Part shown: positions 1-19,485 of the stretch, in pieces
How the letters are laid out: every line of letters starts with the position of its first letter
How positions within the stretch are numbered: position 1 is the stretch's first letter
DNA from: an uncultured virus (IMG/VR IMGVR_UViG_3300010885_015975)
Lineage: Duplodnaviria > Heunggongvirae > Uroviricota > Caudoviricetes
Direction: 5' to 3' (one strand)
Length of the DNA stretch: 20,000 nt
Virus record (IMG/VR): IMGVR_UViG_3300010885_015975
The notes under the pieces: model-generated
Databases searched by the model: none
Told to the model about the DNA's origin: nothing
What the model saw: only the letters and a program-made list of their open reading frames with translations
Program-made: the position numbers and the translations under genes

Positions 1-3000
1 AATCAAGCAATAAAAAATCTTAGAGGTACTGACAATTTTGCTAAAGCTGTTAAAGAACAAAAAGCTGCATTAGAAAATGAACTCATAGAAGATATCAGAA
101 ACATTCTTGAGCTTCCTGATAACTATTCATCTCTAATTATGCCGAATGGTACATTTATTCTCAAGGGTATTGCTGAAAAATTATCAGATAAAGTTTCAGA
201 GTACAATCCTAAGACTAATAAAATGACAGAAAATACTGGAGAAATTAGTCCTACAAGAGTATTAGAAGCAATGTATAACATATACAAACATGAATCTAAT
301 ATTGTAGGTAAGAAAACTCTAGGTCTTGGTGCTATTGAAAACACTTTCAATGTTATTATGAATTCACTTGGTGCTTATATGCCAGATGAATACACTTTAA
401 AGAAAGAGTTGAGAAAAAGTAACATGAGATTAAGAAACAATAAAATGACAGTAGACGGCAAAGAAGTCATCTCTATGTCAGATTTATATGATGTTGATGG
501 TATTAATAAGATAGGAGATGTTATTTCTCAAATGATGAATGGATGGGTGGATGTTGAAAAAGATGCTTGGATTTTCTTTATTCAAGGAAATTATGAGGTG
601 GCTCCAACATTGCTTTACTTAGTTAAAGCTGGTGTACCTGTTCAAGAAGCAATCTATTTTGTATCTAATCCATTGGTAAGAGAGTATGTAGATGAACAAC
701 GTCTTGCTAAGTCTACCTTTGCTGATGTACTTAATAAGAAACCAGATAGTCCAGGTTTAGTAAAATACAAAGCTGCATCTGAAGTTATTAGAAATCATTT
801 TGATAAAGCTGAGTTAGCTAAAAACTCTAGTAATGATGCTAGATACTTGAAAGGACAAGAGTTATTGGATGATCACTTTAAAAACAGAAAAGAAAAAACA
901 TTTACTGAAAGGGAAATGGAAGATCTTATTAACAGCAATGATAAAGATAGTGCAATTGCAAAAGCTATGTTCTTACATTATCTTGAGTTGGAGCAACAAA
1001 TTTCTGGATACACAGCACTTAAAATGAGTTCTAATCCAGATACAGCTACTAAGTCTACTCTTTCTGATGTAGAGCAAAGTGAGGCTAATATTGAAGAGTT
1101 AGAGTTTGATTCAAGAATTCCAAGAGAAATTTTGAATAGTATGATGAATGACTCTATCATTAGTTCTTTCTTTAACGGACCTATGGCCTTAGCTGTAAGT
1201 AGACCATTATTTAAATTAAGATACCACAAGCAGATTAGTGACTATTTAATTGCAAGAAAGAATCAGATTAAAAATGAACTTGAAACAACTTTCCCTGGTA
1301 AGAACATTGAAATGTTTAGCAATGTCTTCAGAAATGATATTGTAAGTTTCATTTTACAGAATGCCCTTAGAAAATACAAAGCTGAAGAAGGATTTATGTC
1401 TTTAAACATGGAGACTAAAATCCCTACTGCACTTGTAAAAGAACTTAAGAGAGGTGCATTTGTTAAAAGTGGTACTTTATATGTAGATGTTAAACAGTTG
1501 CAAAAAGAATTTAAAGCAAAAGCTTGGATTGAAGGATCAGATTCAGAAAATAGTTATGAAGATAGAGGCTTATACCCACTACATCCATCAACATTTATGA
1601 ATAATGAAGAAACAAACTTTAGTGAATATCAAAAATTTGTTTCAGAACGAGAATACTTAAGATCAATATACCCTCTTACAACGGACTACTCTACATCAGT
1701 AGAATTCCAAGAGGAACTAAAAACTACAAAAGAACTCTTACCTGATTTATCTAATGAAAAAGCTGTAAGATATACATATGAAAAACTATTGGCCATAAAA
1801 GCTTTAGATAACTCATATAACTTCTTCAACTTATTCCAAGATAGTGACAATGCTTTTGCTGTAAGAATGTCTAAGTTGTTACAAAATAATCCTGAGCTTG
1901 CAAAAGACTACCCAGTATTGAGTAAATTAAAACTTGATTCAGATAAAACTGAGACTGCATTCAATATCTTATTAGCTGATAAGGATTTTGACAATGATAA
2001 GTCAAATCTTTATAGTAATGATCTTAAAAGATTGGCTGATCCAACTGTACAAAAAGTTAGTGATCCACAAGAAAATGCTAGAATTAGTGACATGTTTAAG
2101 TACTTAAGCACATTTGCTTTCTTACAAACAGGTCTTAACAAAACTAAATTAAGCTTTACAAACATTGTTGACTACACAGACTTCTTAACTATTGTAGAAG
2201 ATGAGGTTGGTAAATTCACAGATGCATTAGATAAAAAAGGATTTACTGTATTAGACAATTTCTATGACCAGTTTATTAGACAAAACTCAGTTACTAATCT
2301 AAATAAAAATAGATTCAAAGACTATTTATCAGGTATGGATTATGCTAATCCTGAAAGAATTAGTCCTACAGTTACACCTACACCGCAAAGAGGTGAGCAA
2401 ACTGCTGAAGAAGACTCTACTAATATGGATACTACAGCTGAAGTAAAAAGACTTGGTTTGAGATCTACAGATAAAGAAGGAGTATTTATGTATAATGATA
2501 GCAATGCTAAAAACATATACTATTACACTAACATAGGTAAGAATAACCCGGATGTAGTGTTCATACACAACACAAGTGTGTATGAAATTAAACCTGAGCA
2601 AATTGCAAAAGGTACTAATCTAGGTGGTGCATCTAACTTTATGTCAGAAATACCTAGCATGTCTATTAATTTTCCAACTAATTTATTTGCAAGTGTTGTT
2701 AATGGTAAACAAGTTGAGCTTAGTCCTGACCAATACCAAACACTAAAAAATATTTGGGAAAAAAGAATTAATATAATCAAACAAATTCAAGATAAAGATG
2801 GTAAAATTGCATTTCCAGAGTATGGATTTGGTGATCCTAACATCATGCCTCAAGAATTATTTGTATATTTAAGTAAGAGGTTATTTGAAGAGTTTCAATA
2901 TGTTAATCCAGGTTCTACTAAGTATGACCAAATGAGAGACTTAGTGAGTGCAAGTCAAGGAATTTCAGATGCTGAAATATTAATACAATTGGAATTAGAA

Positions 3001-3024
3001 GAAGATCCGTTTAAATGTTCATAA
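1..3024 (+). CDS. Giant virion protein, C-terminal part of a crAss-like virion RNA polymerase (5'-partial)
   Basis: Frame 1 is open from base 1 (NQAIKNLRG...LENELIEDIRNILELPDNYSSLIMPNG), so the ATG at 139 is internal. The segments LENELIEDIRNILELPDNY..LI.P, GKKTLGLGAIENT and ISQMMNGWVDVEKDAW..IQGN..APTLLYLVKAG resemble, from memory, the regions downstream of the catalytic DxDxD motif in phi14:2 gp66-like vRNAPs. The catalytic motif itself is not in the window. It sits next to another giant ORF. Confidence 0.75.
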   Translation, partial: NQAIKNLRGTDNFAKAVKEQKAALENELIEDIRNILELPDNYSSLIMPNGTFILKGIAEKLSDKVSEYNPKTNKMTENTGEISPTRVLEAMYNIYKHESNIVGKKTLGLGAIENTFNVIMNSLGAYMPDEYTLKKELRKSNMRLRNNKMTVDGKEVISMSDLYDVDGINKIGDVISQMMNGWVDVEKDAWIFFIQGNYEVAPTLLYLVKAGVPVQEAIYFVSNPLVREYVDEQRLAKSTFADVLNKKPDSPGLVKYKAASEVIRNHFDKAELAKNSSNDARYLKGQELLDDHFKNRKEKTFTEREMEDLINSNDKDSAIAKAMFLHYLELEQQISGYTALKMSSNPDTATKSTLSDVEQSEANIEELEFDSRIPREILNSMMNDSIISSFFNGPMALAVSRPLFKLRYHKQISDYLIARKNQIKNELETTFPGKNIEMFSNVFRNDIVSFILQNALRKYKAEEGFMSLNMETKIPTALVKELKRGAFVKSGTLYVDVKQLQKEFKAKAWIEGSDSENSYEDRGLYPLHPSTFMNNEETNFSEYQKFVSEREYLRSIYPLTTDYSTSVEFQEELKTTKELLPDLSNEKAVRYTYEKLLAIKALDNSYNFFNLFQDSDNAFAVRMSKLLQNNPELAKDYPVLSKLKLDSDKTETAFNILLADKDFDNDKSNLYSNDLKRLADPTVQKVSDPQENARISDMFKYLSTFAFLQTGLNKTKLSFTNIVDYTDFLTIVEDEVGKFTDALDKKGFTVLDNFYDQFIRQNSVTNLNKNRFKDYLSGMDYANPERISPTVTPTPQRGEQTAEEDSTNMDTTAEVKRLGLRSTDKEGVFMYNDSNAKNIYYYTNIGKNNPDVVFIHNTSVYEIKPEQIAKGTNLGGASNFMSEIPSMSINFPTNLFASVVNGKQVELSPDQYQTLKNIWEKRINIIKQIQDKDGKIAFPEYGFGDPNIMPQELFVYLSKRLFEEFQYVNPGSTKYDQMRDLVSASQGISDAEILIQLELEEDPFKCS

Positions 3025-3025
3025 T

Positions 3026-6000
3026 ATGGTATGCCAGGTACAATTAAATTCAATTAAGTTTTTACAAGATAAAGGAGCTACAAATGATGTTAGAAGAATC
3101 ATCAATGAAGATCTTTTTGATAAGTTAAATGATCAGATAACAGCATTAGCTGAAACAAAGTATGGTTTAAAAACTGATGGTACTAAGTTATTTAGTATGA
3201 ACATGTCTGAGCATGTGGATCCACAAAGATCTACCTACTACAGAGATGCTAAGGTTAGAATACTTAGAGCTGAACCTAACGTAAAACTTTTTGAGAGATT
3301 ACAGGACTTGTATAATGCAAGACCAGATGATGCAATGATGATTAAAGATATGCCAAATGCTTTAGATAATCCTAAAGTAGATCAATCTTTACAAAAGATC
3401 AATGGTGTATTATTTATGGATGTTAAACTTGATGAATTACAAAGTCAAAGATCACAAGAAATTGCTGAAGTACTTGCACAAAGACTATCTAAAGGTATTG
3501 GTGCACAATTTGAAAACATTACACAAGAAGAGGCTGCTAACATTTTAAAAAACAGAGCCGTTAAATACAATGGAGAAGCAGCATTCTATTATGCTGGCAC
3601 TGTATATATAGTAGGTGACAATGTAAATGTAAGAACGGTGCTTCACGAATTCTCTCACCCGATATTACAGGGACTGAGAAAAACAAACAACATCCTATTT
3701 CAGAAACTATATGATCAAGCATTAGCTACAGAAGAAGGTCAAGGTATTAAGTACTATGTACTAAATAACTATCCTGAACTAGAAGAGAACTCTGATTTAT
3801 TTAAGGAAGAAGTTCTTGCATATGCTATGCAGTTAAGAGCATTGAATAGAATCAATAATGAACTAGAGACAGAAGGTTACCAAAGTTTCATGAACAAGTT
3901 ATTGGCTGCTATTAAACAGTTGTTGAGAGGCTTGTTTGGAGCAAAGGTAAACGTGGCAAAACTAGATGTGGATACTACATTAGAGGAGTTATCAGATATG
4001 CTCTTAGATAAAGACTTTGAGTTTAAAACTGATAATATTACTGAAGAGGATCTGGTTATGTTCTCACGGAATGTTGTTGACCGAGCAAAAGAACTAAATA
4101 AGTTTTCTAATGCAGAGTCACAACTCAAAGTAGTCAGGGAAATATATGAAACCAATAGAAGAATTCTTACAGAAGCTGAGAACTTTAAAGGAGACAAAGC
4201 TTCAAAAAAATTCTTAAAGGAGTCATTATTTGAAAAGGGAACAAATAGATACTTACGTGAAGTTGTTAGTACACTAAAAGACAATCTTAATGTAGACACT
4301 GAAAGTTTTACAGAAGATGAAATGATTCAAAATGCATTAGATGCTGCTAAAGGGGCCCTAGATGTAGACCTTCAAAGAGCAGTAGCATTGGTAAATACAT
4401 TAGATAATATCAACAGCATGACCCAAAACATGTTACTTGATGTTTCAAGAATCAGCAATACCAATATAAACAATAGAAGTACTATTGCTTTGTTGATGTT
4501 ATACAAACAAAATTCAAAAGCATGGTTGAAAATGATTCAAGCAATTGATGATTCTCTTTCACCAAATGGTCAGTTGATTGAAAGTAATAATCCTTTCTAT
4601 CAAACCTTGAATGAGATAGTATTAAACATTACAAGAATCAATACCAATATTGCAAATATCCTTAAGAACAATAACATACAGTTCTATGTAGAAATTACTG
4701 GATACATGTCTAAGTATATTCAAGATAGACTTAAAGGTAACCTTGGTATTGCATTAAAACAAACTTTCTCTGCAGATCAGTTAGAGAAAGAAGTTGATGA
4801 CTTATATAACAAAGTTGTTCAACAAACTCTTACTGATGCTGATGTGGATGCATTAGTACAGAAAGGTATTCCTGCGGATGTTTTAAAAGGATTTCTCAAG
4901 GAATACAAGGATTTAGTTGTTGATGAAGATAAGATTAGAGCAGCTCTTACAGGAGGAGCTCAAGATGTTAGTTGGTTTAATAGATGGTTAGAAAGCTATA
5001 GTTCAAGTAATGATGTTATAGTAGGACCATTAGCAATGTTTATTCAGAATGAAAGAACCCAGGTACAAAATGTTGTTTGGGAACAATCCATGAAATTCAG
5101 AAAGAAACTAGAAGAGCTTTTACCTAAAGTAGGATTTAGTAAACTAAACTCTATTCAGTTAAGAGACAAGCTTGCATTCAAAGATAAGATACTTTATTTT
5201 GATAAAGAAACCGGTAAACCTATTGAAAAAGAAGTTTACGCTTATCTAGATAAATACAAAGACTATAGATACCACTATGATTTATTAGAGTGGAACATAG
5301 AAGAAGCAAAGAAAACTGAAGATCAAACAAAACTTGCTGATGCACTTATGGAGTTTGAGCAGTTTAAAAGAGATTTCATGTGGCAAGAGTATGTGCCAGA
5401 GTTCTATGAGAAAGATGATATCTTTAAAAAGTCTGAGGTAGGTAAATTAGCATACTTTGTTAGAAAGCAAAAGCTGCAAGCTTACAACAACTTACTAAAC
5501 AGTATGGAGAATGAGTATGAGAGATTTGAAAAATACTCTACTATTCAAGCTGCATTTAGAGAATTCCAACAATTATATTCTCTTACTTATGAAGATGGTA
5601 CTTCTAAAGTAGATGATCCAGAGAATGGAATCTATGACTTAAGTATTGCTGAAGTTTTACAAGAACATAGAGCTGCTACAAAAGGTTTCTATGAGTGGAG
5701 ACCTATTGAAGGATTACTACAAAGTGCATACAATGAGTTTGCAGATTTATTAGAAACTAAAGAAATCTATCCTGGTTCAGCAGACTTTAAAGCTGAGTTA
5801 GAGAAATGGAGAAGACAAAATCTTAGGATGGAGTATGATCCTAGTTACTGGGAAAGTAGAAATGCATTAGTAACAGAACTTAGAGAACTACAAACTAGAA
5901 TGAATGAAGCTACTAAATCTAAATTTGATGTAGCTGAAGCATTCCAAACTATTAATGATCTTATTTATAGTTACAGGGATGAGCAAGGGGAACCTGATAG

Positions 6001-8965
6001 CAATGCTATGGGTCAAACAAGACTTGAAAGAATCAGAGATTTAGAACAATATATTGTAGATTTTAAATTTAGATTTGATTCTTCCACGGGCCTCTCTAAA
6101 GAAGACTCCGAAGAGTTAAGAGAACTATCAGAAAAAGCTAGAAAAGGATTACTACAAGCTGGGTCTGCAGAATCTAAAAGATACATGTATCTATTAGACT
6201 TACTAAATGCACAAGGAATTAGTCCTGAAGATTCAGCTAGAATTCAAGATATCTTCTCTGAGTTATCTGACTTATCTGTAAACATGCCTACTACATATTA
6301 CGTAGAGACATTAAATTACAATTTGTCTAAACAAAATATTAAAGAGTTAGAGATTGATGAGATTGATGACTTTATCAATACTGAAGAGTTTGAAGAAATG
6401 TTAGAAGCTGATGAGGCATTCAAAAGTTGGTTTAACACAAATCATTATGTGATTCAAAAGTATGATAAACCAACTAGAGCATACATTGCTAGATACAAAA
6501 GAACAAAAGCTAATACTGTTTCTATACCTAAAGATGAAAGTAACATCAAGTTTACTAAAATTTTAGATAGAAATGGAGAAGAAGTTGTTCTTATGGGTGT
6601 ACCTAATGCAAGACATTCTAGATATCAGGTTAAAGATGCATACAGAACTATCCCATTTGGTGAAGCAAAATCAGATTATGTAGGTAAGTATATTGATAAT
6701 AAAAATCAATGGTTACCAAGACTTTATGATCCAACTTCAAAATACAGTGCTCGTGACAAAAGATTCATGAATGAAAAGTATTTTCAAATGCAAGCTGCTA
6801 ATAGTAATGAGTTTAAGTTACTTGAAGCAATTAAAGAATATCATTTAGAAAATCAAAAAGGACAAAGTAGTTATAGTAAGTTATATCTTGACATGCCTAG
6901 ATATGCTCTTAAAAAAGGAGACATATACCAAGCAATGCAAAAAGGTGCTTATGGTCAGAGGTTTTCTGAATTAGGGGCAAATGTAAAGGAGTGGTATAAT
7001 CAAGCATTAGGTAAATCTGTAATGGATGCTGAGAATGACTTAAACTATAATCCTGAAAACAACTTAGTAAATACTGATCTTGATGGAAATCAAATATCAT
7101 ACGTACCAGTATCTGGTATCTATAATTTAGACATTGCTGTACAAGATGCTGATGTTTTCCAAGGATTATTTAGATATGCATTGTCTGTACAAACACAAGG
7201 AAAACTTCTAGAAAGTTTACCTCTTGTACAAAGTATCTTAGACACTTTAGAGGATCCTGATAATGCTCCTAAAGAATTAGAGAAGTTTGATAAGAATATC
7301 TATAGTTTAAAAGGGACCCTTACAAATGCAAAGAAAAAGTTTGCAACTAATAATAGACTTGGTCAAGTAAAATCTTTAATTGAAAGAGAATACTACGGTA
7401 AGATGGTTGAGGGTATTGAGGAAACTCACCCTGGATTTGGTAAATGGATAAATCAACTTCAAAGTTTATCTGCTATGGGTTCATTAGCTGTCAATATTCC
7501 TTCTGATTTAAAAAACAAATACGGTGCTTATGTACAGTTGATCATTGAAGGTGCAGGTGCTGAGTTTATTAATCTTAAAGATATTGCATTAGCACGACCT
7601 TGGGCAGAAAGAGCTATGTTAGAATGGTCAACAAAAGGCATCTATCAAACAGGACCTGGAGCTATATCTACACAGTTAATTCAGATCTTTGATCCTACCT
7701 TTAAATCTAAAGACCAATTCGGTAGAGAGATAGAGAGATCATTAGTAAAAGATCTAGTTAATATGGAGTGGATGTACATGCACAGAAAATTTGGTGAGAT
7801 GCAAGTTGCAGTTTCATTATTTGGTGCTTTTATGTATGGACAAAAAATAGATCAAATTCTTGGTGACGGTACTAAAAAATCAATGAGATACATTGAAGCT
7901 TGGGAAAAAGATGATGATGGTATTATTAGGTTAAAAAAAGGAGTACACCCAGGATGGAATAATCTTTCTGTTTATCATGAGTATGTTAAAGGTGAAACTT
8001 TAGCAGAAATTGCTAAAAAGTATTACATAAGTGTTGATGAGCTTAAAGCTAAGAACAGGATTAAATCTGAAGTACAGCTTGAAGATGGTCAAGAACTTAT
8101 TATTGCTAAGTCAGAGTTATTTATGGGACTTAAGAATAGAATTCAAGGTACTTCAAGAAAACTATTTGGTACATATGATGAAATGGGACAACCTGAAGGT
8201 AATAAGTTATTACTCTACAGAATGTTTTTCTTTATGAGAAAATGGTTTACACCTATGTTAATGAATAGAGTTGGTTTTGATACTAAAACTATTTCATGGA
8301 CCGGTGGTGGTGAGAGATATGACTGGGCTACAACATCTTACGGTAAAGGTTTTTACATAACAGCATTTCAAACAATGCTTAAAACTATGAAATCTGGTTT
8401 TAAAAACTATAGTTATTTAACAGAACAAGAAAAAAGTGCTGTAAGAAAAATGGCCGGAGAAGGATTCTTTGCAATTGGTCTTGCTCTATTATCATTAATG
8501 TTGTTTGGATTTGATCCAGAGGATGATGATAAATGGAAAAAATTAAGAGCTAAGTCTGGTGCAATTAATGAAGATAGTTTTAATACTTATGGGTTCTTAG
8601 CAAACCACATGTTACTATTAGCAATGGGTGTTCAAGCAGAGTCTAGTGCATTTGTTCCATTACCTAATATAAAAGGAATAAACTTTGGGTCAGATGACTA
8701 TGTAAAAATGATCACACAAACAACAACATCATGGTATAACACTGTTGTACTTTATATTGATATATTTGGAGACGTGTTAGACTTTGTAACATTTTCAGAA
8801 ATGGATAGATATAAAAGAGATACTGGACCTTATTCTTGGAAACAAGAAGGGGAACTAAAGATTTGGAGTAAATTAGGTAAGATATTTGGTTTATCCGGAG
8901 GTACTGGGGATCCAGTTACACAATTTGAAAATATGGTTAAAAACAGTTCTAAAAGAGGAAGTTAA
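3026..8965 (+). CDS. 1979-aa probable virion ejection/cargo protein with zincin-like HExxH domain, LysM domain and C-terminal hydrophobic helices
   Basis: Long ORF starting 1 nt after the upstream stop. TVLHEFSHP (3644-3658) plus downstream FKEEVLA is a zincin-like signature. A LysM-like segment lies at ~7973-8104. Hydrophobic stretches include GFFAIGLALLSLMLFGF (8462-8512) and GFLANHMLLLAMGV. The body is mostly helical/charged, as in podophage-type ejection proteins. Confidence 0.75.
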   Translation: MVCQVQLNSIKFLQDKGATNDVRRIINEDLFDKLNDQITALAETKYGLKTDGTKLFSMNMSEHVDPQRSTYYRDAKVRILRAEPNVKLFERLQDLYNARPDDAMMIKDMPNALDNPKVDQSLQKINGVLFMDVKLDELQSQRSQEIAEVLAQRLSKGIGAQFENITQEEAANILKNRAVKYNGEAAFYYAGTVYIVGDNVNVRTVLHEFSHPILQGLRKTNNILFQKLYDQALATEEGQGIKYYVLNNYPELEENSDLFKEEVLAYAMQLRALNRINNELETEGYQSFMNKLLAAIKQLLRGLFGAKVNVAKLDVDTTLEELSDMLLDKDFEFKTDNITEEDLVMFSRNVVDRAKELNKFSNAESQLKVVREIYETNRRILTEAENFKGDKASKKFLKESLFEKGTNRYLREVVSTLKDNLNVDTESFTEDEMIQNALDAAKGALDVDLQRAVALVNTLDNINSMTQNMLLDVSRISNTNINNRSTIALLMLYKQNSKAWLKMIQAIDDSLSPNGQLIESNNPFYQTLNEIVLNITRINTNIANILKNNNIQFYVEITGYMSKYIQDRLKGNLGIALKQTFSADQLEKEVDDLYNKVVQQTLTDADVDALVQKGIPADVLKGFLKEYKDLVVDEDKIRAALTGGAQDVSWFNRWLESYSSSNDVIVGPLAMFIQNERTQVQNVVWEQSMKFRKKLEELLPKVGFSKLNSIQLRDKLAFKDKILYFDKETGKPIEKEVYAYLDKYKDYRYHYDLLEWNIEEAKKTEDQTKLADALMEFEQFKRDFMWQEYVPEFYEKDDIFKKSEVGKLAYFVRKQKLQAYNNLLNSMENEYERFEKYSTIQAAFREFQQLYSLTYEDGTSKVDDPENGIYDLSIAEVLQEHRAATKGFYEWRPIEGLLQSAYNEFADLLETKEIYPGSADFKAELEKWRRQNLRMEYDPSYWESRNALVTELRELQTRMNEATKSKFDVAEAFQTINDLIYSYRDEQGEPDSNAMGQTRLERIRDLEQYIVDFKFRFDSSTGLSKEDSEELRELSEKARKGLLQAGSAESKRYMYLLDLLNAQGISPEDSARIQDIFSELSDLSVNMPTTYYVETLNYNLSKQNIKELEIDEIDDFINTEEFEEMLEADEAFKSWFNTNHYVIQKYDKPTRAYIARYKRTKANTVSIPKDESNIKFTKILDRNGEEVVLMGVPNARHSRYQVKDAYRTIPFGEAKSDYVGKYIDNKNQWLPRLYDPTSKYSARDKRFMNEKYFQMQAANSNEFKLLEAIKEYHLENQKGQSSYSKLYLDMPRYALKKGDIYQAMQKGAYGQRFSELGANVKEWYNQALGKSVMDAENDLNYNPENNLVNTDLDGNQISYVPVSGIYNLDIAVQDADVFQGLFRYALSVQTQGKLLESLPLVQSILDTLEDPDNAPKELEKFDKNIYSLKGTLTNAKKKFATNNRLGQVKSLIEREYYGKMVEGIEETHPGFGKWINQLQSLSAMGSLAVNIPSDLKNKYGAYVQLIIEGAGAEFINLKDIALARPWAERAMLEWSTKGIYQTGPGAISTQLIQIFDPTFKSKDQFGREIERSLVKDLVNMEWMYMHRKFGEMQVAVSLFGAFMYGQKIDQILGDGTKKSMRYIEAWEKDDDGIIRLKKGVHPGWNNLSVYHEYVKGETLAEIAKKYYISVDELKAKNRIKSEVQLEDGQELIIAKSELFMGLKNRIQGTSRKLFGTYDEMGQPEGNKLLLYRMFFFMRKWFTPMLMNRVGFDTKTISWTGGGERYDWATTSYGKGFYITAFQTMLKTMKSGFKNYSYLTEQEKSAVRKMAGEGFFAIGLALLSLMLFGFDPEDDDKWKKLRAKSGAINEDSFNTYGFLANHMLLLAMGVQAESSAFVPLPNIKGINFGSDDYVKMITQTTTSWYNTVVLYIDIFGDVLDFVTFSEMDRYKRDTGPYSWKQEGELKIWSKLGKIFGLSGGTGDPVTQFENMVKNSSKRGS
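7973..8104 (+). other. LysM domain within the 1979-aa protein
   Basis: YHEYVKGETLAEIAKKYYISVDELKAKNRIKSEVQLEDGQELII matches the LysM pattern (V..GdTL..IA.kyg.s..eL...N.......l..Gq.L.i). Confidence 0.85.
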
Positions 8966-16993: not shown

Positions 16994-18163
16994 TTATTTT
17001 ACAGCCATCTTCACCACGTTCTGATTCATCATCAATTGTGAGAACTTAGTTTTATTACCGTTAACTATCTCCTTCACCATGTAATATCTTAAATCATCAG
17101 TGAATGCTTTACAATCTGTAGTTAACTTAGCAATTCTATCAATGATAGGTTTACCAATGCTTGTTTTATCAGCTAAAGCAAGAGAATAATTTATAATCCT
17201 GGTTGCAATTACACTGGAAATATCAGCACGGAAATCATCACCTTCCCCTACTGCAGAAGTCAAAGACCCTAAAACATATATTTCATCTTTAGTTAAGATA
17301 TCTGCAGGACTAATAATTCTATCTAGTTTGTTGTTAATAAACATAGTAAACATAGAACTAAAGTCTGGACCAACTGAACCCTCACCAATCATCTGAATTA
17401 GAGGTAAGTCACTTTCAAACTTAGGAATAGAACTGATAGCATTAAAGAATGTAGTAATAGCTCTTGGATTAATTCTTTGAGTTACTAATTCTGGATGCAT
17501 CAACATAAAATTAATACATCTACCGTCAATGTTTGCACTCTCTGCCCACTTAGCCCATACTTCAGAATCATACTTTAACTCAACAGAGATAAATCTAGTC
17601 TTCTGAGCTACATCTAGACTTGTGACATTATAATCACCATTGTCTGGATTAGTAGTCAAGATAACATGCCAGTTCTTAGGTAACTTCCAAGAAACATATT
17701 CTTGTCTATCTAAGATCTCCATAGTTGCTTGCATAAATCTTTGATCAGCACGAGTGTAATCATCTAAGATTAAGAATCCACCCTCTCCTTTACCCTGAAT
17801 CCATTCAGGAGCAGCATGTGACATTCTCTTATCTACAACTTTATAACCTTTTGCACTTGCTGCAGATATCTGAGATTCATTAATCCAAGTAGTCTTACCT
17901 TCAGCATTTGCAATCTGAAATTCTTTTACAGGAAAACCTACTAGGTCACCTAATTCTTCTAACTGAGATAAATTAAGTTTTACAACTTGCATATTCATCT
18001 CTTTACCCAATTGCATAATAGCAGAAGTCTTACCAAGACCAGCATCACCCTCAATATTAATAGCCACAGGAACTTTTCCTTCAGACTGAATGTGTTGGTT
18101 ATTTCCAACCATGTGTTTAATAAATCCTTTTAATTCTTCTACATTTAATTGAACTTGACTCAT
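16994..18163 (-). CDS. MoxR-like AAA+ ATPase
   Basis: Walker A GDAGLGKT, ELGDLVGFP insert, Walker B FLILDDYTRA, sensor-1 LTTNP, Arg finger AQKTRF, NPR sensor-2; adjacent to a VWA gene. Confidence 0.9.
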   Translation of the reverse strand: MSQVQLNVEELKGFIKHMVGNNQHIQSEGKVPVAINIEGDAGLGKTSAIMQLGKEMNMQVVKLNLSQLEELGDLVGFPVKEFQIANAEGKTTWINESQISAASAKGYKVVDKRMSHAAPEWIQGKGEGGFLILDDYTRADQRFMQATMEILDRQEYVSWKLPKNWHVILTTNPDNGDYNVTSLDVAQKTRFISVELKYDSEVWAKWAESANIDGRCINFMLMHPELVTQRINPRAITTFFNAISSIPKFESDLPLIQMIGEGSVGPDFSSMFTMFINNKLDRIISPADILTKDEIYVLGSLTSAVGEGDDFRADISSVIATRIINYSLALADKTSIGKPIIDRIAKLTTDCKAFTDDLRYYMVKEIVNGNKTKFSQLMMNQNVVKMAVK

Positions 18164-18174
18164 AACTTTAATTT

Positions 18175-19485
18175 TTATAATTCTAATTTAATGACCTTTC
18201 CAGGCAAACTATCATTCATACACGATCTTTCTGACAAAACCCATAGAACGTTACCTCTAGGTTTTACATCTGTATAACATTCTCCATCAGTAAAATATAC
18301 CAAACTAGTATATTTACCCAAATGAGCATTAAAATATTCTAAGACAGGATCAAATTCTGTGCCTCCTCTGCCTTGTACACTTAGTTCATGTTTACCTTTA
18401 TAAGGTTCAATAGATCTAATCATTGTGTCACACTGAATAATGGTAATATCTACACCACATTTATAAATATGATGCATTTCTACCATAAACTCCTTTAATT
18501 CAGAATCACTTACAGAACCTGAAGTATCAATACCCAACAACATATGTTGTCTCATTTTTACTTTTAGACCTGGATTTGCATCAAATCTTTTATTTTCTTT
18601 TCGTCTAATCTTTTTAGTATAGACTTTAGTACTAACTCCTGTAAATCTTCTAATATATCCACGCCAATCAAACTTAGGTGGCACTATTTCCTCTATTACA
18701 ATAACTCCATCAATCTCACCAGGTACATTGCCTCTTTTCTTAACAGTCTGTTCCTTGGCATCTGATAAAACTTTTTGTAATTGTTTATTAATTAATTTTT
18801 GTTCAGCCTCACTAAGATTTTCAAACTCATCCCAAGTACTATGGTCAGGCAAATCATCACCGTCACCAGCATCCATTTGATCACAAAGATTATCAAAGGC
18901 TTCAGAACCACTTGTACCAGTTTGGTCTTTCTTATCTTTTGCTTCTTTAAGTTTATCATAATAGTATCTGGCACCTGCTTTTCTATCTAAATTAAGTTCA
19001 ACATAATCATCAATCATGATACCTCTTGAAGGAAGTTTCTTACTAATAGCAAGAAGATCTTCTTGAGTAGCACCATTTTCTTTAGCTGTTTCTAATTCAG
19101 CTTTAACAGACTCTTTAAGTTGTTTGAATTCATCAGAACTTAATTCACCACCTGGAAGCCAGGAAGCATCAATATACTGATTAATTTCCATATCCATAGC
19201 CACATTAGCTAATCTTCTATCACTGAACTTAAATACAGTTGTAAGATGTCCAAATGCAATATGTAATAATTCATGTTTAAGTAAACCTAATCTTTCTAAT
19301 TCAGTTAAACTTGTCCAGAACTCTTCATTTATCACTAATTGATAATTGATACCATTCTTACTAACACCTGCAGTAGGTACTTTTTTATTCCACAGCTTAT
19401 TCAACATAATAAGAAAGAACCCATAATAGGGCTCTTTCAACATTAAATCTTTGGCTGTTTTACTAAGACTCTGTGCCTTGTCCAT
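18175..19485 (-). CDS. Metallopeptidase-like (HExxH) + VWA domain protein (DUF2201-like)
   Basis: PTAGV, LLKHELLH, NVAMDMEINQ in the N-terminus; MIDAS IDTSGS, QCDT, GRGGTEF and YFTDG in the C-terminus. Confidence 0.9.
   Translation of the reverse strand: MDKAQSLSKTAKDLMLKEPYYGFFLIMLNKLWNKKVPTAGVSKNGINYQLVINEEFWTSLTELERLGLLKHELLHIAFGHLTTVFKFSDRRLANVAMDMEINQYIDASWLPGGELSSDEFKQLKESVKAELETAKENGATQEDLLAISKKLPSRGIMIDDYVELNLDRKAGARYYYDKLKEAKDKKDQTGTSGSEAFDNLCDQMDAGDGDDLPDHSTWDEFENLSEAEQKLINKQLQKVLSDAKEQTVKKRGNVPGEIDGVIVIEEIVPPKFDWRGYIRRFTGVSTKVYTKKIRRKENKRFDANPGLKVKMRQHMLLGIDTSGSVSDSELKEFMVEMHHIYKCGVDITIIQCDTMIRSIEPYKGKHELSVQGRGGTEFDPVLEYFNAHLGKYTSLVYFTDGECYTDVKPRGNVLWVLSERSCMNDSLPGKVIKLEL

Follow-up and report, generated by a model that had tools for sequence, protein, structure and literature searches.

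Facing terminal cysteines at the junctions of giant crAss-like phage cargo proteins suggest an end-to-end disulfide tether

We examined a window of 20,000 nucleotides from an uncultured virus of the Caudoviricetes (IMG/VR record IMGVR_UViG_3300010885_015975), which opens with the 3′ part of one giant gene, followed directly by a second. Their products, called B and C here, face each other across the gene junction with the only cysteines that they have in the window, one at the end of B and one at the start of C. The pair was lost at none of the 82 junctions inspected in relatives (0/82), and the pattern responds to the fusion and the splitting of the proteins and is independent of gene arrangement. 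Judging from these sequences, we consider it fairly probable that three cargo proteins, namely B, C and a protein A encoded ahead of B in relatives, are joined end to end by disulfides at the facing cysteines into one thread. An earlier note, made from the window alone, had proposed such a head-to-tail chain of ejected proteins; that interpretation is partly supported, and the comparative predictions drawn from it were all borne out.

Protein B enters the window as a 5′-open frame on the plus strand (1..3024), of which the C-terminal 1007 aa are visible and which is a virion RNA polymerase orthologue. Its one cysteine is the penultimate residue, encoded by TGT at 3016..3018 (plus strand), and stands at the end of a conserved C-terminal domain of about 194 aa (2440..3021, plus strand) that ends EEDPFKC-S. 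The gene junction is tight (3022..3028, plus strand), with the TAA stop codon at 3022-3024, one spacer base, and the ATG of the next gene at 3026-3028. Protein C (3026..8965, plus strand) is a giant protein of 1979 aa with a single cysteine at residue 3 (MVCQ), encoded by TGC at 3032..3034 on the plus strand; both cysteine codons were read in the sequence. Cys3 lies in a conserved N-terminal domain, residues 1-97 (3026..3316, plus strand), which is a candidate docking module. Further along, C carries an HExxH motif (HEFSH at 3644-3658, H207-H211, invariant in 6 sequences), a LysM domain (Pfam PF01476, E 6.6e-6, residues 1655-1693, nt 7988-8104), and a C-terminal hydrophobic segment at about residues 1809-1831. 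It is the final plus-strand gene ahead of a strand switch and would be the final member of the chain; it ends ...NSSKRGS, so that the absence of a C-terminal cysteine, which had been pointed out as fitting for a chain end, holds here as it does in five complete relatives.

The scarcity of cysteine in B and C was evaluated against the remainder of the window. The 11 minus-strand ORFs contain 2-7 cysteines each, 36 in 3409 aa altogether (1.06%), in agreement with the statement of the earlier note that these proteins use cysteine normally. At that frequency 31.5 cysteines are expected in the 2986 aa of B plus C, whereas 2 are observed (0.07%; binomial P (<=2) = 9e-12). The observation that only two cysteines occur in about 2990 aa, exactly one per protein and facing each other across the junction, is thus confirmed. 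Off frames of the same DNA are rich in TGT/TGC, with 18 and 64 codons in 1-3024 and 37 and 115 in 3026-8965, and the scarcity is therefore a property of the proteins and not of base composition.

Scanning of contigs with the 1979-aa C protein yielded 40 viral loci (numbered with the prefix L) at 40-96% identity. The B/C junction lies inside 34 of these and is cut off in the other six (L008, L022, L030, L035, L036, and L040); together with the window, this makes 35 junctions with 30 distinct sequences. In all 35 homologous gene pairs the terminal cysteine pair is kept. The cysteine of B falls within the final three residues at 35/35 junctions, being the last residue in 4, the second-last in 28, and the third-last in 3, and what follows it varies freely (nothing, S, T, V, E, K, R, DI, EL, or TE). 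That of C is likewise present in 35/35, at residue 3 in 34 and at residue 4 in 1. The codons are TGT in 34 and TGC in 1 at the end of B, and TGT in 28 and TGC in 7 at the start of C. The gap between the two genes ranges from −1 to 6 nt, with 1 nt in 15 of the 30 distinct junctions; with so variable a gap, the two genes keep no constant frame relative to each other. In an alignment of 22 sequences of the B tail, P396, F397, and C399 are invariant, and a LFVYLS..L block is invariant or nearly so. At the head of C, M1 and C3 are invariant in 22/22 aligned homologues, indicating that the start codon read here is the conserved one, and the N-terminal domain contains twelve invariant columns in 16 sequences and is followed by a hypervariable insertion site. 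Beyond the junction pair, these relatives have 0 or 1 internal cysteine per protein of 2000-3600 residues.

The upstream DNA, which the window does not include, was read in five relatives chosen across the identity range. All five have three giant genes in a row, A-B-C. Protein A (2398-2558 aa) has its sole cysteine as the last residue and none at the N-terminus. B (3315-3623 aa) starts M-A/I-C and ends DPF-K/N-C plus 0 or 1 residue, with 0 or 1 other cysteine; C (1977-2553 aa) starts M-V/A-C, lacks a C-terminal cysteine, and has 0 or 1 other. Each trio thus contains 4-5 cysteines in 7757-8647 aa, four of them at the junction-facing ends, and the outward-facing ends (the N-terminus of A and the C-terminus of C) never carry cysteine in the five full blocks. 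A scan with an alignment of A extended this to 49 loci, in 47 of which the A/B junction is visible (34 distinct; it is cut in L064 and L081). At 47/47 of these junctions A ends in cysteine and B starts with one, as expected if the chain runs on into the gene ahead of the window. The cysteine of A is the last residue in 32, the second-last in 8, and the third-last in 5; in the other 2 it stands tenth from the end, and the stop codon there seems to have been displaced. That of B is residue 3 in 39 and residue 4 in 8. The A/B gap spans −11 to 11 nt. Removal of Met1, as a means of exposing the near-terminal cysteine, was also considered. Residue 2 is mostly small, but it is Ile in 12 of the 34 distinct B starts, and we make no claim for this.

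Directly ahead of A lies a protein of about 1000-1130 aa (starting MATYLQGVTDYI; L041 7418-10597 and equivalents, and the first ORF of L054-L102) with no cysteine in nearly all loci and no terminal cysteine. It may be an additional, untethered ejected protein. The two genes ahead of it have clustered cysteines.

Profile comparisons place the three proteins among the cargo of crAss-like phages. The part of B in the window aligns with residues 2317-3323 of the L001 protein (3315 aa) at 95.6% identity. A profile of five full-length B proteins matched phi14:2 gp66 (hhalign probability 99.4, E 9.8e-22, 882 columns) and crAss001 gp50 (probability 99, E 6.6e-18), with SGGDFDIDKL aligned on SGSDFDVDKL; these matches bear out the label "virion RNA polymerase-like" that B had been given, although the window covers only the portion of B downstream of the DFDxD catalytic motif. 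A, as read in the relatives, matched crAss001 gp47 over only 153 columns (probability 98.2, E 5.6e-14). C matched phi14:2 gp65 (probability 97.4, E 1.1e-11, 36% identity) in residues 1-97 only, starting from Met1. B has an invariant HEAWH motif (H777-H781 in the L001 sequence). According to the available text of a preprint on phi14:2, gp66 is a DNA-dependent RNA polymerase with the DFDxD motif that accompanies the DNA into the host, gp65 has a zincin-like protease domain, and the orthologues of gp65, gp66, and gp67 are virion proteins that are fused in some phages (10.1101/2020.03.07.982082). The virion status of the cargo proteins is also recorded in GenBank MS/MS notes. For crAss001, the structural atlas, as far as its text was available, describes gp47, gp49, and gp50 in virions, assigns them to a cargo zone in the capsid from which they can exit only by partial unfolding, and gives an extrusion order that likely arises from packing and mutual interactions (PMC10172136). 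The window is thus the end of a crAss-type cargo block from a deep-branching lineage without a close GenBank relative. Because the phi14:2 and crAss001 orthologues are known to be packaged and delivered, A, B, and C most likely travel in the virion and enter the host too.

Apart from these profile matches, the proteins are isolated. Searches of PHROGs and Pfam gave no match for A, B, or the four genes upstream of A, and for the B part of the window PHROGs gave none and Pfam only a weak ChpXY match below threshold (16.9 bits; the cut-off is 25). For C, the two databases returned LysM only, and Pfam no zincin. The C-terminal domain of B had no match in Pfam, PDB sequences, or phi14:2 gp66; PDB sequence profiles gave none for this domain or for the N-terminal domain of C, and one chance-level match for B (E 0.73). 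Comparison of A and C by tblastn with 50,697 phage records found nothing, and the nearest record, G001, had no match to C. The N-terminal domain of C could not be located in the fused proteins of p-crAssphage and crAss002 or in crAss001 gp49. An hhalign comparison of the B and C N-terminal domains with each other found no similarity: the two junctions have no repeated coupler in common, and each would have its own specificity.

We then asked whether the rule extends to known phages, using 11 crAss-like genomes that were hand-picked, with an aim at diversity and annotated splits and fusions, from the best 60 of 126 records matching crAss001 gp50. A cysteine pair is present at 16/16 junctions between separate proteins, two of which rely on a downstream start codon and one on an unannotated ORF. 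In phi14:2, gp67 has Cys1797 of 1797, gp66 has Cys3 and Cys2179 of 2180 and no others, and gp65 has Cys3 only. In crAss001 the corresponding residues are Cys2339 of 2341 in gp47, Cys5 and Cys2404 of 2412 in gp50, and Cys5 in gp49. DAC15 has the cysteine of A third from the end, Cys5 and the last residue in B, and Cys4 in C; in cr116_1 they are second from the end in A, Cys3 and the last residue in B, and Cys6 in C. Bajarodcaudo virus 1 has it fourth from the end in A, Cys3 and ninth from the end in B, and Cys5 in C when counted from a downstream ATG. Where B and C are fused, the preceding protein has its cysteine second from the end (gp45 of p-crAssphage and gp32 of crAss002), and the fusion starts with Cys3 in p-crAssphage gp44 and with an internal M-S-C in crAss002 gp33, at residues 33-35 when counted from the annotated start. 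Where A and B are fused, the cysteine is second from the end in Fpv1 and cr50_1 (followed by Cys3 in C), fourth from the end in cr1_1 (Cys5 in C), and eleventh from the end in cr10_1 (Cys5 in C, in the unannotated ORF).

Three gene models deserve mention here. Crass002 gp33 (L110 13088-13190) has the in-frame M-S-C 32 codons past its annotated start and looks mis-started. The annotated start of C in bajarodcaudo virus 1 (L113 17129-17200), 18 codons upstream of M-A-K-S-C and overlapping the preceding gene, also looks mis-started. In cr10_1, an ORF starting MKIIC after the 4460-aa gene (L117 at about 18745) is missing from the feature table.

Four of these genomes (crAss001, DAC15, bajarodcaudo virus 1, and cr116_1) have the gene for A on the other strand, running towards those for B and C, and even there A retains its C-terminal cysteine. 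This rules out a DNA or RNA signal at the junction and indicates that the order of the chain is set by protein ends and not by gene order. The colinearity of chain and genes that the earlier note had proposed is therefore not general.

Fused, interrupted, and split genes serve as natural experiments on the pattern. Fpv1 gp33, an A-B fusion of 4401 aa, has a single cysteine, the penultimate residue; the A-B fusion of cr1_1 has none in its first 4025 residues, and those of cr50_1 and cr10_1 are cysteine-free within about 400 residues of the inferred boundary. The B-C fusions are cysteine-free between residues 2220-3105 (p-crAssphage gp44) and 2140-3119 (crAss002 gp33). None of the six fused genes examined has a cysteine near the inferred former junction. 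A different kind of break occurs in the polymerase genes of bajarodcaudo virus 1 and cr116_1, which are interrupted inside SGSDFD/VDK by group I introns with an endonuclease gene (L113 13491-14386 and L114 15618-16459, respectively; RF00028 halves at E 1.4e-10 and 5.7e-5 in one genome and 3.5e-6 and 6.7e-7 in the other). No cysteine pair is found at either intron break. In the GenBank tables, the exons of both genes are entered as separate hypothetical proteins.

At the locus L033, the break lies between proteins. Here C is made as two proteins, and a free-standing GIY-YIG gene (Pfam E 2.6e-7) lies between their genes. The first piece, 396 aa, starts MAC and ends ...DCG, with cysteines only at residues 3 and 395; the second starts MACKHIYKG... 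and runs straight into an AAA_33 kinase-like domain at residues 38-169. Five unsplit C homologues aligned across the split site have no cysteine there. The chain in L033 would accordingly have three links, through A ...KCNI, B MAC...KCDI, C1 MAC...DCG, and C2 MAC.... Two other accounts of this split were tried and rejected. For a group I intron, Rfam at E up to 1 was empty in L033 9800-11300, whereas both broken polymerase genes, in L113 and L114, yielded RF00028 halves in the same search. A split intein has an N-half of about 100 aa starting with Cys/Ser and a C-half ending HN, followed by Cys, Ser, or Thr. For such an intein or a fractured gene the cysteine positions in L033 are wrong, and no intein matched in Pfam at E up to 0.01.

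The closest known counterpart comes from another phage group. In the pre-ejectosome of cyanopodophage A4, the paper reports, in the text available, that the C-terminal helix of gp27 is inserted in a cleft of gp26 and that a Cys1715-Cys5 disulfide is seen by cryo-EM (PMC12002296). In the A-4L record, gp27 (1717 aa, sole cysteine 1715) and gp26 (1114 aa, sole cysteine 5) are products of consecutive genes. The likeness is close: the upstream protein has its sole cysteine third from the C-terminus, the downstream one near the N-terminus, and these ejection proteins are otherwise cysteine-free. The differences are that A4 has one pair instead of a chain of two or three links and no RNA polymerase, and that gp27 and gp26 sit in a pentameric ring on the portal. 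Within its available text, the paper does not offer the gp27-gp26 disulfide as a general rule (PMC12002296). Alignment by hhalign of A, B, and C (labelled A1, A2, and A5 among the alignments, with A3 for the 22-sequence B tail) with A4 gp26 and gp27 gave probabilities of 0.07-1.6 (A5 with gp26, A2 and A1 with gp27). In the absence of similarity, the A4 pair is an analogue by architecture and not a relative.

Within the crAss-like phages, phi14:2 gp67-gp66-gp65 and crAss001 gp47-gp50-gp49 are orthologues of A, B, and C and follow the same terminal-cysteine rule; the proteins of the window lineage differ in being much larger and in having no similarity to GenBank phages at the level of tblastn. 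The fused polyproteins (p-crAssphage gp44, crAss002 gp33, Fpv1 gp33, and those of Suoliviridae) contain the same modules in the same order, but these are joined by a peptide bond and are cysteine-free at the inferred join, whereas the join in the window would be a reducible S-S. The fused form is probably cleaved into its components, as stated in the accessible part of the Drobysheva preprint, a text in which cysteine or disulfide is mentioned 0 times (10.1101/2020.03.07.982082).

The Schitoviridae operon (N4 gp50-52 and DEV gp71-73) resembles the block in that a giant virion RNA polymerase is ejected with partners and cysteine is suppressed. In 191 Schitoviridae, cysteine makes up 0.865% of the proteome against 0.00075% of the virion polymerase homologues, which the paper, in its available part, attributes to passage through the periplasm (PMC11445570). 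N4 gp50-gp51-gp52 have 0 cysteines in 4294 aa (L112, EF056009, 14524-27524), while the DNA polymerase and gp43 of N4 have 1.1-1.4%. The difference is that N4 gp50-52 have no conserved cysteine whatever, whereas the window lineage has invariant terminal ones. Ejection in N4 is described, in the accessible text of a structural study, as sequential and mediated by protein-protein contacts, gp51 joining the N-terminal domain of gp50 by interaction and not by a bond, and the N4 polymerase is described there as structurally distinct from gp66 (PMC13434306).

B and C also vary in domain content on either side of their junction. Relatives carry differing enzymatic inserts before the C-terminal domain of B and past residue ~128 of C, in which Pfam finds GNAT, ART-PolyVal (twice), DUF7831, NADAR, cpYpsA SLOG, and an AAA_33/zeta-toxin-like kinase (L015 1395-4094, L018 10001-12700, L005 7897-9996, L014 5704-7803, L017 7896-9995, L021 7896-9995, L015 2-1390, and L033 10874-12673). 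The B and C of the window are short forms without inserts. This looks like a shuffling of injected effector modules in the fashion of polyvalent proteins, the giant injected proteins of phages and conjugative elements with shuffled enzymatic modules. The ART-PolyVal, NADAR, SLOG, GNAT, and zeta-toxin-like kinase inserts constitute the likeness; the difference is that the polyvalent concept is about domain content and not about end-to-end tethering.

On the basis of these comparisons we propose the following course of events. The end of each protein would dock on the start of the next one through junction-specific terminal domains, and the paired thiols would then form an inter-protein disulfide in the particle, giving a thread A-S-S-B-S-S-C of about 7,760 residues (in complete relatives, A has about 2400-2560, B about 3300-3620, and C about 1980-2550 aa). 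The tether would fix a 1:1:1 packaging and allow every protein to pull its successor into the tail channel, doing the same job as covalent gene fusion does in other crAss-like phages. In the host cytoplasm the bonds would be reduced and the polymerase freed; a reducible join would allow release without a protease. The comparative data show the cysteine pattern and how it is kept; a disulfide in the phage of the window, docking, an ejection order, and reductive release are inferred. When the C-terminal 201 aa of B were co-folded with the N-terminal 125 aa of C (22-row alignments), the median score was 0.57, and a single unrelated control partner scored 0.61.

Several observations weigh against this proposal. 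Assembly takes place in a reducing cytoplasm, which sits awkwardly with oxidation to disulfides, and the crAss001 atlas reports disulfides, in its available text, only in the tail and gp57, with the cargo unresolved (PMC10172136). The avoidance of cysteine is not absolute: one additional internal cysteine occurs in certain relatives of the window, and a single protein of a gut relative can have as many as 10 (cr116_1 B1). Nor is the position tight in every lineage, with the C-terminal cysteine 9th to 11th from the end in L096/L097 and again in crAss001 gp50, bajarodcaudo B2, and cr10_1. In L091, A is in two overlapping frames with no cysteine at the break; because L090 encodes these termini in an unbroken frame of 2472 aa, this break is probably a frameshift error. 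Boundaries in the fusions were placed from BLAST offsets and are only approximate, because the N-terminal domain of C was not located in the fusions. L033 is a single protein-level split (n=1), and the cassette may have brought its own ends. Finally, p-crAssphage gp47 (857 aa; L108 1588-4161), upstream of the trio, has a lone penultimate cysteine and the next protein, gp46, has none; lacking an evident partner, a terminal cysteine may serve another use.

That last case leads to the alternative in which each terminal cysteine acts alone, as an anchor to the portal, the capsid interior, or other cargo, or in a homodimer or a modification, and the facing arrangement is incidental, the termini being the only tolerated cysteine sites. 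Besides the p-crAssphage protein, the many disulfides among other crAss001 particle proteins, reported in the part of the atlas available, speak for it (PMC10172136). The counts, however, always fit pairs (A at the C-terminus only, C at the N-terminus only, B at both), and fusion drops both cysteines while a split adds both, neither of which independent anchoring predicts; we regard it as quite improbable. Alternatively, the terminal thiols could join the proteins through a shared metal such as zinc, or act as the cysteine switch of a zincin, the terminal cysteine capping the catalytic metal so that the protease is silent until ejection. Cysteine switches are known from matrix metalloproteinases. 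HEAWH in B and HEFSH in C are invariant and lie in the N-terminal parts of both proteins, and a zincin-like domain has been noted in gp65, by the preprint's available text (10.1101/2020.03.07.982082). A switch would need one cysteine, yet every junction keeps two, one per protein. In relatives, variable inserts put as many as about 600 residues between Cys3 of C and the HExxH domain, the split junction of L033 has its cysteine pair with no zincin adjoining, and the sole solved case of this architecture, A4, is a plain disulfide. We consider a metal-based role unlikely.

The remaining two explanations are contradicted by the data. If the TGY codons were a nucleotide signal at the junction, for translational coupling, reinitiation, or a fusing frameshift, the 1-nt spacing between stop and start in the window and in half of the distinct B/C junctions would be in its favour. 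However, the spacing ranges widely at both junctions and the frame relation is not kept, TGT alternates with TGC, the terminal cysteine persists in the four genomes with a convergent A on the other strand, and the purging of cysteine from the rest of both proteins is a protein-level signature; such a signal is very improbable. It is harder still to credit that the cysteines are there by chance or relaxed selection, strays that survive at the least constrained termini of proteins in which cysteine is disfavoured throughout. Suppression in ejected proteins is indeed a known and sufficient cause of depletion, as the Schitoviridae paper describes in its available part (PMC11445570), and N4 gp50-52 are cysteine-free. 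But the terminal cysteines are invariant over 40-96% identity while their neighbours vary, never occur at outward-facing ends in the five full blocks, and recur in families without detectable similarity at those termini.

As to novelty, the earlier note knew of no description of such a system. For Crassvirales this stands: a literature search, with subscription journals and supplements outside its scope, found no description of a terminal-cysteine rule. It does not stand in full for phages at large, given the one pair in cyanophage A4 (PMC12002296) and the suppression of cysteine in Schitoviridae (PMC11445570), each taken from the available part of its paper. What is new is that the rule extends to a lineage that has no relatives in GenBank and whose proteins are the largest, the different behaviour of intron-broken and protein-split genes, and, from the opposite-strand cases, the independence of the rule from gene arrangement.

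Elsewhere in the window, two minus-strand genes (18175-19485 and 16994-18163) encode a DUF2201 putative metallopeptidase plus VWA-like protein adjoining an ATPase-like protein (Pfam E 6.5e-16 and 6.8e-15; PHROG ATPase E 3.6e-33). They belong to a replication module and are unrelated to the cysteine finding.

CrAss-like phages are the most abundant human gut viruses, and the present finding bears on how they pack and deliver a cargo of about 700 kDa or more, including the RNA polymerase that starts infection; in crAss001 the masses of gp47, gp50, and gp49 add up to about 694 kDa (PMC10172136). A wider view, which we hold tentatively and rate at a little under even, is that disulfides serve crAss-like phages, and perhaps podophages in general, as the means of building a polyprotein, every break between proteins being patched by a cysteine pair. 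Junction-specific docking would guide the patching and yield a thread of >7,700 residues that includes the polymerase, with a fixed stoichiometry and a set order in which it is drawn through the tail, and the reducing cytoplasm of the host would cut this thread into working enzymes; fusion, splitting, and tethering would then be interchangeable states of one device. If true, tethering by disulfides would explain why one set of modules occurs fused in certain families but as separate proteins in other families, why cysteine is purged from the rest of these proteins, and how the parts are released without a protease, and it would extend the single structural observation in cyanophage A4 to a rule for ejected proteins.

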